IMG/VR virus record: IMGVR_UViG_3300033757_000296
Coordinates: 32,001-96,000 of that record
Source of the DNA: a virus
Lineage: Duplodnaviria > Caudoviricetes
Reading direction: 5' to 3' (one strand)
Length of the DNA: 64,000 nucleotides
Shown: piece after piece, positions 12,746-14,786 of the stretch
Position numbering within the stretch: the stretch's first letter is position 1
Layout: each line of letters opens with the position of its first letter
Program-made: the position numbers and the translations under genes
Notes under the pieces: model-generated
The model's database searches: none
Told to the model about the DNA's origin: nothing
Seen by the model: only the letters and a program-made list of their open reading frames with translations

Positions 12746-13174
12746 ATTAAGCGCATTTTATTATTACTACTCCTTTTCATAACAATAACTCCGACTTATG
12801 CGATTGGCGGATATTTTATCCCAGGCGGATATTATGGAGGGGAAGCGGGATACTATTACTGGGAAGATTATTGTCCCATGTGTGGACATTACGATTGCCT
12901 TCTCGTAAACCCCAAAGGAACTTATGAAGGTGAAATAACTTGTTCTATATGTGATGCAGATTATGATGGATGTACGGGAGCAGAGAAACATGGAAGTGGC
13001 GCTAGAGCGTGGTTGAGTCCTTATGAGGAACCAGAACCCGTTCAAGCACAAGAAGTAGTAGAGAATGTTACAATAGAACCCCCAACAAACACGACAATAA
13101 CAAGCGATTGGGGAGTTATAACTGTTGATAACAAACACTTAGAATTGCTACAAACGAGCAAAATTATATATTAA
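12746..13174 (+). CDS. secreted Cys-rich (Zn-ribbon-like) protein; probable ATT start
   Basis: AGGAGGTG SD, then in-frame ATT giving signal peptide (M)KRILLLLLLFITITPTYA; domain YCPMC...EGEITCSICDADY. Confidence 0.65.
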   Translation: MKRILLLLLLFITITPTYAIGGYFIPGGYYGGEAGYYYWEDYCPMCGHYDCLLVNPKGTYEGEITCSICDADYDGCTGAEKHGSGARAWLSPYEEPEPVQAQEVVENVTIEPPTNTTITSDWGVITVDNKHLELLQTSKIIY

Positions 13175-13189
13175 TGGAGGAAAAAAAGA

Positions 13190-13567
13190 ATGACAGTAGA
13201 AATGTTATTTTATGTTTTGTATATTTTAGCAGCAGTAGGAATAGTTTTAAGAATCGTTGCTGATCGAGGATATGATTTAAAACCCATATTATATCCAGAT
13301 GGCAAATTCCAGATGAATATTGTATTTACAATTGTCGCTGGATTTTTTGCATCAATTCCCACGATTAATTTACTTGCCGGACAAATCGTTATAACCGATC
13401 CAATGAGCATCCTTTATGGTGCATTTGCTGTACTTGTGACGGCTTATGGTGCTCCATCAATACTTGATGGAATTGGAACTATTGTAACCGGTACACCAAA
13501 CGAAAAACTAGCCGAAGCCGTTACAACTACCGAAGTTGTAACAGAAGAAGCTCCAGGGGAAGCCTAA
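13190..13567 (+). CDS. putative holin (three TM segments)
   Basis: Three hydrophobic segments and an acidic tail; directly upstream of the endolysin. Confidence 0.55.
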   Translation: MTVEMLFYVLYILAAVGIVLRIVADRGYDLKPILYPDGKFQMNIVFTIVAGFFASIPTINLLAGQIVITDPMSILYGAFAVLVTAYGAPSILDGIGTIVTGTPNEKLAEAVTTTEVVTEEAPGEA

Positions 13568-13574
13568 TCCCCTA

Positions 13575-13582
13575 TTTTTTTT
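13575..13582 (+). terminator. archaeal oligo-T terminator candidate
   Basis: T-tract immediately after the stop codon. Confidence 0.35.
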
Positions 13583-13632
13583 AAAACCGTAGTAATATCA
13601 TAATATAAAATTTTATTTTTAGGAGGATTTTT

Positions 13633-14418
13633 ATGGCGGATATTAGTGGTCAACAAACCAAAATCTATAAATCTGTTTTCATAAATATGCTAATGAGGTA
13701 CTGGGCATATCGAAAAAAATATGGCAAAGAACCTAACATTATATATATAAACCCAAATCTTAAAGGGGACTTTATTACTTTGGCTCGATTTAACAACATG
13801 AGAGCCAGATACGAAGTTTGGGAAGGAGCCCATGGCAGTCCACCAAACTATGTATGGATAGTTGCACCTACTGTGGCACAACAACCCAGTGGCGGAGTTT
13901 ATGTTGAAAGCTCATTCTTAGACTTTGATCAAACAACTGATTATACCTGCGGACCAGCATCCTCAGTAATGGCCCTATCAGCCTTGGGAATAAACACAAC
14001 CGAATCGGAAATGGCCCTGCGGGAATGGACCGTAGCCGGATCTGGGACAAGTCATGCCGGGATCATATCTGGTTGTAAAGCCGAAGCCGCCGAACATGGT
14101 ATAACCTTAACTGTTACTGAACGAAATTTCAGTGATGGCGGTTCGACACTAAAAGAACGTTTCAAATATCTTGGAGAACTTATAGCTGATCCAAAAGTGG
14201 CAGTAATCGAGAATGGAATGTGTAGTGGATGGCCGACCTATTATAAATCATATAAAGGCGGACACTATGTTTTTGCCGTAAAAATTGATCTTAATCAACA
14301 AAAGGTTTGGGTAGCAGACCCAGCGAGAAGTGCGACCTTGGTATATTCATTCCAGGAATTTGCAAACGGATTAGCCGCACATAGCTTACCTAGTTTATTG
14401 ATATTGAGGAGAAATTAA
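13633..14418 (+). CDS. endolysin: pseudomurein-binding-repeat-like N-terminus plus C39 peptidase (PeiR-like endoisopeptidase)
   Basis: F.NML.R...Y.KKYGKEPNII and FNNMRARY..W....GSPPNYV repeats; QTTDYTCGPAS, GHY and ADP catalytic motifs. Confidence 0.85.
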   Translation: MADISGQQTKIYKSVFINMLMRYWAYRKKYGKEPNIIYINPNLKGDFITLARFNNMRARYEVWEGAHGSPPNYVWIVAPTVAQQPSGGVYVESSFLDFDQTTDYTCGPASSVMALSALGINTTESEMALREWTVAGSGTSHAGIISGCKAEAAEHGITLTVTERNFSDGGSTLKERFKYLGELIADPKVAVIENGMCSGWPTYYKSYKGGHYVFAVKIDLNQQKVWVADPARSATLVYSFQEFANGLAAHSLPSLLILRRN

Positions 14419-14420
14419 AT

Positions 14421-14786
14421 ATGCAACCACGTGAATTATATACAGATACAAAAGAAATAAGGCTCCCCAAAGAGCCAGCAAACAATCCGGGTACTAATAT
14501 TATAATAATGCTCGGAGATAAAAGGAACAAATTTAACGGTGAGGATGTTGATATAATCAACCAAACTATCGACGAAGATGACCCCACCAGGATCGTCGCA
14601 ACCGCAACTATAACTAAAACCAAAATGCTTAAATTTAAAAAGCTTGTGGCTGCGGACATAGTAAACTATTGGGATACTGATATCGATACGTTAGATAAAT
14701 TGAAGTTCTATATGAAGGGTCGTTATAGTTCTGCTTTCAGTATTGACTCTATGGTTACTGTTGTAAAATTTGTAATAGATGAATAA
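14421..14786 (+). CDS. hypothetical protein at the end of the lysis cassette
   Basis: GAGGAG SD; followed by T-tracts. Confidence 0.55.
   Translation: MQPRELYTDTKEIRLPKEPANNPGTNIIIMLGDKRNKFNGEDVDIINQTIDEDDPTRIVATATITKTKMLKFKKLVAADIVNYWDTDIDTLDKLKFYMKGRYSSAFSIDSMVTVVKFVIDE

Follow-up and report, generated by a model that had tools for sequence, protein, structure and literature searches.

An undescribed four-cysteine domain of pseudomurein archaea and their viruses occurs as a secreted protein and within a viral baseplate hub

The 64,000-nucleotide stretch of viral DNA analyzed here (referred to as the window; Duplodnaviria; Caudoviricetes; positions 32,001 to 96,000 of the IMG/VR record IMGVR_UViG_3300033757_000296) encodes a small secreted protein at the head of a putative lysis cassette, and the four-cysteine domain of this protein recurs inside a second gene product that we assign as the baseplate hub. 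We use X as a working name for the shared domain. X is an undescribed family with a confident fold prediction, found as free proteins and as part of larger ones in pseudomurein-containing archaea and their viruses; it is a domain family, and not a new kind of mechanism. We propose tentatively, with a confidence a little short of an even chance, that X is an exported, metal-stabilized module that binds the pseudomurein wall, and that the free copy masks sites on it.

The two matching Cys-rich segments of the original prediction are both present, one as a DYCPMC...CDADY motif at 12866-12964 (plus strand) within open reading frame (ORF) 12596..13174, and the other as NYCPLC...CDADY at 48108-48212 (minus strand) within the hub ORF. 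The two products align by BLASTP with 27 identities in 64 residues (42%; E 5e-13), and the match extends past the cysteines into a common G-x-DK-x-GG-x-R-x-L-x-P tail. The likeness is real, far above chance, and is not a generic zinc-ribbon resemblance. A profile of the family recovers the free copy (E 3e-43) and the hub copy (E 3e-16), and outside the cysteines dozens of relatives share the invariant positions N-P-K, E-G-E, T, D-x-D, G and K. The domain is about 80 residues long with four near-invariant cysteines, CPxC...CxxC, which are at least 90% conserved, and two lysines, K40 and K64, are invariant.

A word-indexed protein search returned 34 homologues of 88-235 amino acids (aa), 33 of which are without precomputed Pfam domains; the few names that their sources give read 'hypothetical protein', apart from P0027, which is labelled a ring-hydroxylating ferredoxin subunit. 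When the 66-residue core was searched exhaustively with HMMER against 1.84 billion representatives, it gave 185 clusters at E<=0.001, including both small and large proteins, of which at least four are multi-stretch matches that are spurious. No X family is present in Pfam, PHROGs, NCBIfam or PADLOC, the family profile matches no PDB sequence at E<=10, the ESM Atlas gives no usable match, and none of the papers searched, which deal with adhesin-like proteins, viral lytic proteins, gut archaeal viruses, MSTV1 and the pangenomics of pseudomurein, describes the domain. The Pfam matches of free X are weak (E 0.03-0.05) and of zinc-ribbon type (Lar, Elf1, IBR), as might be expected if generic zinc ribbons resembled one another by chance and the small ORF were not a real gene. 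This explanation is already refuted by the E value of the pair, the conservation beyond the cysteines, the 34 close homologues, the 185 clusters less their spurious members, the 52 viral loci described below and the high confidence of the predicted fold.

The free proteins share a layout in which a signal peptide ending in small residues is followed by a conserved mature N-terminus, (I/V)-x-GYF-x-P-GG-x-YGG...YYW, the CPxC and CxxC cysteines, DADYDG, G-x-DK...R-x-x-L, a Pro/Glu-rich linker and a variable tail; in the window protein this tail aligns with the C-terminal module of Methanobacterium chromosomal orthologues. Four starts are possible, ATG 12707, GTG 12737, ATT 12746 and GTG 12623. 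The ATT start of the original prediction, located six bases past AGGAGGTG (12732-12739), is not needed, as the in-frame ATG at 12707 fits the n-region of the homologues. This ATG is the likeliest start because its n-region, MQDFRYHKQEVLSIKR, is similar in length to that of the cellular homologues (MNQRRNYIKR...), with IKR aligned. Both starts give an identical signal peptide. The same protein has a public gene call of 183 aa (cluster P0001, on a 111-kb contig), and a still earlier start at GTG 12623 is therefore inferred for that call. We note that with ATG 12707 as the start, the 'leader hairpins' described earlier fall partly within the coding region. The signal peptide proposed for the free copy is well supported, with a canonical basic, hydrophobic and small-residue layout that is kept across the homologues; in the long ORF, a hydropathy scan assigns residues 54-72 to the hydrophobic span, the predicted mature protein begins IGGYF at 12803, and in the relatives the conserved domain begins right after A-x-A-like sites.

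The AlphaFold2 model of the free copy (mffee28c34d4e, from 68 sequences) is all beta, with predicted local distance difference test (pLDDT) values of 93-98 over the first 80 mature residues. Each CxxC lies at the end of a hairpin, with C26/C29 following strand 18-23 and C49/C52 following strand 46-49, and the model thus has the two-knuckle, four-cysteine arrangement of a zinc ribbon. In an exhaustive VIA-align search the first 41 matches are Rieske-type domains (about 65 aligned residues, root-mean-square deviation about 3 Å) with Z of 6.4-3.1, in a range below 8 where a match may reflect a common arrangement; Foldseek against the PDB returned nothing below E 0.1. We call the predicted fold Rieske-like, in the sense of a zinc-ribbon core with extra strands; the scores behind this name are modest and the list of matches is uniform. 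The four cysteines would hold a metal, most likely Zn2+ or, in this anoxic setting, Fe2+. Two viral copies of 137 aa (L061:5944-6357 and L064:5944-6357) lack all four cysteines and keep NPKGTAEGEW, which suggests that the inter-knuckle loop is the functional part and that the metal is structural. In both loci, a gene resembling those for the pseudomurein-binding repeat (PMBR) and Pei lies 1.7 kb upstream of the cysteine-less X.

The n-region MNQRRNYIKR of the cellular orthologues (P0002-P0016, L006, L008) resembles the twin-arginine consensus RR-x-F-L-K, and export by the twin-arginine translocation (Tat) pathway was considered and rejected: TatC (PF00902) is absent from all four Methanobacteriaceae genomes searched, and scores in 11 of 14 control genomes. 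Export by Sec is likely because TatC is absent from these four genomes, and X most likely leaves the cell unfolded by this route and takes up a single metal ion outside. X was also rejected as a Rieske protein. Instead of the Rieske ligand pattern CxH...CxxH, both window copies and almost every relative have four cysteines in CPxC and CxxC, no Rieske family appears in a Pfam search at E<=1, and the Tat translocase on which Rieske proteins depend for export is missing from the four genomes. More broadly, X could be an extracellular rubredoxin- or Rieske-like iron centre, acting as an electron carrier or thiol-redox factor, or a metal scavenger, perhaps keeping cysteine peptidases reduced; the nearest fold, the ferredoxin label of P0027, the two CxxC motifs and the RR-containing QRRNYIK of the cellular orthologues all speak for such a role. 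We nonetheless consider it very improbable, given the same ligand, spacing and profile results, the persistence of copies without cysteines, and partners that are wall proteins and not redox enzymes; moreover, a cluster assembled in the cytoplasm could not be exported where TatC is absent.

The hub gene follows a 1237-aa ORF of tape-measure size and a 224-aa ORF, and its product has a YQBQ-like Pfam match (E 1e-4) and a model (mean pLDDT 68) that matches the Mu gp44, MuSo2 and Neisseria hubs and VgrG-type spikes (Foldseek E 3e-13 to 1e-8). In this model X is flanked by disordered stretches (residues 138-176 and 258-272; pLDDT <50) and therefore appears to be a tethered insertion. The hub copy has extra cysteines, PSCSYRC upstream and CINC downstream. 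More generally, copies of X embedded in large late-region or tail proteins (L003, L004, L024, L028 and the window hub) have at least four extra cysteines, in patterns such as PSCGCC upstream and CGYCGG downstream, suggesting a second metal site or disulfides, unlike the free subfamily.

That the hub is wall-degrading, as originally proposed, is supported at the profile level through its C-terminal Cys-His domain. Alignment of the hub family with the Pei/transglutaminase profile by hhalign (96%, E 4.7e-9) places GDCYAMS opposite GNC and NHR opposite GH, and the aligned hubs show no variation at Cys496 and His525. In Pfam the hub C-terminus falls below the Transglut_core cut-off (E 0.032; 14.9 bits against 23), and one of ten hub relatives reaches E 2.5e-4. 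Locus L053 (4743-7017) encodes a 395-aa YQBQ-like hub with Transglut_core (E 4e-18) and, after 14 bp, a 357-aa protein bearing an N-terminal X domain. This pair appears to be a split counterpart of the fused hub in the window, a link made through Pfam and profile comparison, with no pairwise BLASTP match between the two hubs. Similar X proteins of 357-449 aa are present in L020, L023, L025, L051, L052, L058 and L074, the remainder of each being without a Pfam domain.

The partners of X were counted with Pfam in 47 long representative X proteins. PMBR is present in 16 of the 47, Transglut_core in 12, the Ig-like domains Big_1 and MG4 in eight each, DUF4015 (a putative glycosyl hydrolase domain) in seven, Peptidase_C71 in four, the YQBQ hub and Prophage_tail in two each, and PG_binding_1 in one. 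The commonest catalytic partner is a transglutaminase/Pei-type cysteine peptidase, which is usually C-terminal to X. Ten mid-sized viral X proteins (227-613 aa) have no Pfam partner domains. The range of partners resembles that of promiscuous binding modules such as LysM, SH3b and carbohydrate-binding modules, and this resemblance is the main basis on which we suggest that X is a binding domain.

Among annotated methanogen viruses, free X is encoded by Drs3 (ORF18), PhiF3 (ORF29) and PhiF1 (ORF68), and X is embedded in large proteins from the late regions of MSTV1 (847 aa) and vir249 (1041 aa); in all, 52 IMG/VR loci on viral contigs encode the domain. A domain-only profile finds it in 238 of 329 host genomes (72%), with up to eight copies in each and in open frames of about 160-230 aa, 800-850 aa or 1500 aa. 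The 329 genomes comprise the phylum around a Methanobrevibacter genome, and PMBR (PF09373) is present in 322 of them and absent from all 14 control organisms; the set therefore consists essentially of pseudomurein archaea. A pattern-based scan of 185,579 species genomes yielded 18 confirmed loci, 14 of which are in Methanobacteriaceae/Methanobacteriota. The other four (L072, L079, L080 and L081) are on short contigs of metagenome-assembled genomes labelled bacterial, from Paludibacteraceae, Bacteroidota, Clostridia and Acholeplasmataceae bins. Three of these, L079-L081, fuse X to Transglut_core, L080 also has a PMBR/Pei gene, and L072 has a tail-fibre chaperone domain; all four are probably mis-binned DNA of methanogens or their viruses. 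Other candidate bacterial members were dismissed as spurious, including P0043 (an RHS/PPC protein), P0068 (cadherin-like) and P0106, none of which matches the family profile, and P0135, which matches it weakly through cysteine-free repeats. Within the limits of these searches, every identifiable carrier fits the proposed restriction to pseudomurein archaea and their viruses. X is not a viral specialty, given the number of host genomes that encode it, and the evidence for an undescribed 'system' reaches no further than a secreted accessory protein.

Methanobacterium genomes retain a free secreted orthologue (190-234 aa) in a syntenic housekeeping region, flanked on one side by an F420-oxidoreductase-family gene and on the other by AP-endonuclease, PIN, PRA-CH and HisRS genes; there are no viral genes in the vicinity. 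In other host genomes X is fused to PG_binding_1 or to Ig-like arrays. Tandem pairs of small secreted X genes are also found at a syntenic host locus (L083:4994-5981 in G103 and L084:4738-6018 in G098), where an upstream same-strand gene has an archaeal pilin-like class III signal peptide and the downstream genes are KaiC-like and UvrC-like.

In an unrooted maximum-likelihood tree of 42 domains, the free copy of the window groups with three Methanobacterium chromosomal copies (support 95/88; 75% identity), and this host-containing group is nested in a clade of nine free forms whose remaining members are largely viral (98/93). The hub copy is placed with a second viral tail protein (95/85). From these groupings the two window copies appear to be old, distant paralogues of different subfamilies; the proposal that one domain is used twice holds in that the copies are homologous, but not in the sense of a recent duplication. 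Host and viral free copies appear to have been exchanged, in a direction that the unrooted tree leaves unset.

The cassette has the order originally described: free X, a holin-like gene, a C39 endolysin gene and an unassigned ORF, and the coordinates of these and the other features are given in Table 1. Free X lies near endolysin or holin-like genes in about seven of 12 viral lineages, and does so with two endolysin families. In the clade of L010, L011, L016 and L017 it is 37 bp upstream of an endolysin gene with PG_binding_1 and Peptidase_C71; in L041 it is 171 bp upstream of a C39 endolysin gene; in PhiF3 it is two genes downstream of Pei; in PhiF1 and L018 it is divergent from ORF67 and a C39 gene; and in Drs3 and L013 it is directly upstream of mutually homologous two-span holin-like genes. 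The linkage is not universal, and in four lineages (L015, L022, L027 and L056) X is found among HNH, AAA_24 and NrdD genes. Placed at random, X would be expected within two genes of a single endolysin gene in roughly 7% of cases; the lineages are related, and we regard the proposed linkage to lysis genes as a trend and not as a probability.

Table 1. Coordinates of the free and hub copies of X and of neighboring features in the window
Feature	Coordinates	Strand	Evidence
Free X protein gene	12707..13174 (long ORF 12596..13174)	+	ORF list; alignment with 27 relatives
Predicted signal peptide	12746..12802	+	Basic KR, 15-residue hydrophobic core, T-Y-A before the cleavage site
X domain, free copy	12803..13021	+	Tyr/Gly-rich hairpin, CPMC, NPKG, EGE-ITC, SIC-DADYDG, G-x-EK...R-x-W-L-x-P
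Pro/Glu-rich linker and short C-terminal tail	13022..13174	+	pLDDT 45-71
Holin-like membrane protein, 125 aa	13190..13567	+	Hydrophobic spans 5-23, 44-62 and 66-84; acidic C-terminal tail
Endolysin candidate, 261 aa	13633..14418	+	PMBR-like N-terminus and C39-like cysteine peptidase
Small unassigned ORF, 121 aa	14421..14786	+	Weak BLASTP likeness to an ORF of L010
Baseplate hub protein, 563 aa	47127..48818	-	Foldseek hub matches; gene order
X domain in hub, residues ~178-257	48048..48287	-	BLASTP against the free copy; profile match 196-257, E 3e-16
Pei/transglutaminase-like Cys-His domain, hub C-terminus (80 residues)	47184..47423	-	hhalign

The other members of the cassette are assigned with varying support. 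For the product of the second gene, Pfam, PHROGs, NCBIfam and PADLOC give no family and the retrieved loci contain no homologue; it is called holin-like from its topology and position. The endolysin candidate matches Peptidase_C39_2 (34.8 bits against a cut-off of 24), PMBR at residues 10-39 (E 0.003), an endolysin PHROG (E 8e-12) and, in its N-terminal part, a pseudomurein endoisopeptidase PHROG (E 3e-8). The 121-aa ORF weakly resembles a 91-aa ORF located directly upstream of X in the unrelated viral contig L010 (7656-7931; BLASTP E 8e-5, 23% identity). The ORF of L010 itself has a weak ASCH match (E 0.013), and the 121-aa ORF is a possible conserved companion of the other three cassette genes. 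Further downstream in the window, an IS605/TnpB-type transposase gene (about 17017-18190) has 74% DNA identity to the OrfB transposase of Clostridium phage c-st; searched as DNA against phage records, the region returned insertion sequence transposase matches and nothing else, and that of c-st is its sole DNA-level match to any phage record.

From these architectures, neighborhoods and taxonomic range we infer wall binding, competition and masking as the functions of X. The contact surface would be the conserved tip near the metal site (NPKG, EGE-x-TC, CDAD and G-x-DK) together with the aromatic hairpin. In the hub, X on its flexible linkers would hold the Pei/transglutaminase-like Cys-His peptidase to the wall at entry. 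Free X would be exported by Sec before the holin acts, fold outside the cell, and occupy the same kind of wall site as the hub copy. It could then compete with X-bearing enzymes for such sites, as the tip residues are conserved alike in free and fused copies. By masking these sites, free X would keep the hubs of incoming or progeny virions off the wall of infected or lysed cells, in a manner comparable to the action of phage T5 Llp on FhuA. Masking is slightly favored over a helper role for the endolysin, because a host-retained orthologue among viral ones is more easily explained for a protective factor, and because X is exported apart from endolysins that have binding domains of their own. 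A host orthologue within an otherwise largely viral clade of free forms is as expected of a masking gene retained by the host.

Several observations weigh against wall binding and masking. The function assigned to X is drawn from its context. Endolysins adjoining X have their own PMBR or PG_binding_1 modules and many fusions pair X with PMBR, and X may therefore bind something besides pseudomurein. The N-terminal hairpins of the free and fused subfamilies differ, so that the two need not share a ligand. In four lineages the free copy sits among replication-type genes, and host copies occupy ordinary chromosomal loci without wall-enzyme neighbors. The structural matches, at Z of about 6, are in the range where a common arrangement is possible, and the tree does not fix the direction of transfer between host and virus.

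A bolder form of the masking proposal is that free X constitutes a pseudomurein-specific competition system, in which secreted decoys occupy the wall sites of X-bearing hubs and autolysins, viruses thereby exclude superinfection and protect their progeny, and Methanobacterium has captured one copy as a chromosomal shield against viruses and lysins; we think this unlikely as a whole. A helper role, in which free X is a separate wall-binding subunit or priming factor that speeds or localizes lysis by the adjacent endolysin, is possible, though as a complete account we would not call it probable; set against masking in particular it is nearly as likely. The adjacency of X to endolysin, Pei or C39 genes in the L010 clade, L041, PhiF3, PhiF1 and the window would follow directly from such a role, as would the recurrence of the ASCH-like small ORF with X. 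However, X has a signal peptide and the endolysins do not, so that the two would be in separate compartments until the holin acts, and the endolysins are already equipped with binding modules; it is hard to see why a host would keep a lysis helper at a conserved locus, and the linkage is missing in the four lineages noted above.

The frequent pairing of X with papain-like peptidases admits two further explanations. X might regulate these enzymes, inhibiting or gating transglutaminase/Pei and C39 wall peptidases, with the hub peptidase quieted in cis and free copies damping host autolysins or the lysins of foreign virions. X is indeed N-terminal to Transglut_core in at least 12 of the 47 long proteins and in L079, L080 and L081, an X gene follows the L053 hub-transglutaminase gene after 14 bp, and the lysines of NPK and DK are invariant, lysine being the residue at the Pei scissile bond (PMC4592898). 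We find this doubtful, as X also occurs with Ig-like adhesin domains and the putative glycosyl hydrolase domain, and with PMBR or PG_binding_1 where there is no peptidase, all of which fit a general binding module better, and X is on disordered linkers in the hub model. Transglutaminases form isopeptide bonds between Glu or Gln and Lys. Were X a covalent wall-anchoring tag, neighboring transglutaminase-like domains would cross-link its invariant lysine to the Glu of pseudomurein; the repeated co-occurrence of X and Transglut_core and the invariance of K40 and K64 could be read in this way, and isopeptide bonding by transglutaminases has been discussed for methanogens (PMC11915815). The idea is purely speculative and barely credible, given that the related viral enzymes PeiW and PeiP are hydrolases (PMC4592898), that free viral X adjoins C39 peptidases too, and that we found no evidence for cross-linked wall proteins.

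Pseudomurein is, to our knowledge, the only murein-like wall in archaea, and we know of very few protein modules that act on it, namely PMBR and the Pei peptidases. X is a second widespread pseudomurein-associated module, present in 72% of the genomes searched and on at least 52 viral contigs, and is of moderate to good interest to specialists in archaeal cell walls and viruses. If X binds the wall, it would provide a new targeting handle for anti-methanogen lysins, with uses in rumen methane mitigation and the control of gut methanogens, and could be used to mark genes for entry and exit in methanogen viruses, which are mostly unannotated. If free copies mask sites or regulate lysins, they would represent a testable virus-host conflict at the archaeal wall, and a competition system, if true, would rest on a new metal-binding fold and be the first mechanism of exclusion at the wall to be described in archaea. 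Experiments are feasible in the cultured pair of Drs3 and Methanobacterium formicicum, which carries a free copy.

Several known proteins resemble X in part. The knuckles of zinc ribbons and rubredoxin-like proteins (Lar, Elf1, TFIIB) have the same CPxC...CxxC on two beta hairpins, but classical zinc ribbons are cytoplasmic modules that bind nucleic acids or proteins, whereas X is secreted, is larger by an N-terminal aromatic hairpin and a C-terminal extension, and has NPKG, EGE and DK motifs of its own. The cluster-binding subdomain of Rieske [2Fe-2S] proteins is the nearest solved fold, with two metal-binding knuckle loops at one tip; X differs in having four cysteines in place of Cys2His2 and CxxC in place of CxH, in lacking sequence similarity, in being exported without the Tat pathway, and in having wall proteins as partners. 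Free binding domains occur in some Gram-positive phage lysins, and PlyCB, like free X, is a small binding protein encoded beside a catalytic lysin gene; PlyCB has no signal peptide and joins PlyCA in the cytoplasm, whereas X is exported alone. Bacillus subtilis IseA (YoeB), which inhibits wall DL-endopeptidases and so modulates papain-like (NlpC/P60) autolysins, is likewise a small secreted wall-associated protein, but is not homologous to X. Llp of phage T5, one of several superinfection-exclusion proteins, is a small viral protein with a signal peptide and, as X could, blocks the entry site of its own virion; it is a lipoprotein whose target is a protein receptor, FhuA, and it shares neither sequence nor fold with X, for which masking is proposed from context and which, unlike Llp, is a widespread host domain. 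A further parallel is PMBR, known from PeiW, PeiP and methanogen surface proteins and reported by others to bind pseudomurein, which like X is extracellular and is found in the same organisms and viruses, in the same proteins and with the same peptidases. PMBR is a 33-residue repeat, whereas X forms one beta domain that has about 80 residues and a four-cysteine site; neither the free protein nor the X part of the hub matches PMBR, which occurs elsewhere in the same polypeptides, and X, unlike PMBR, also occurs as a free secreted protein.

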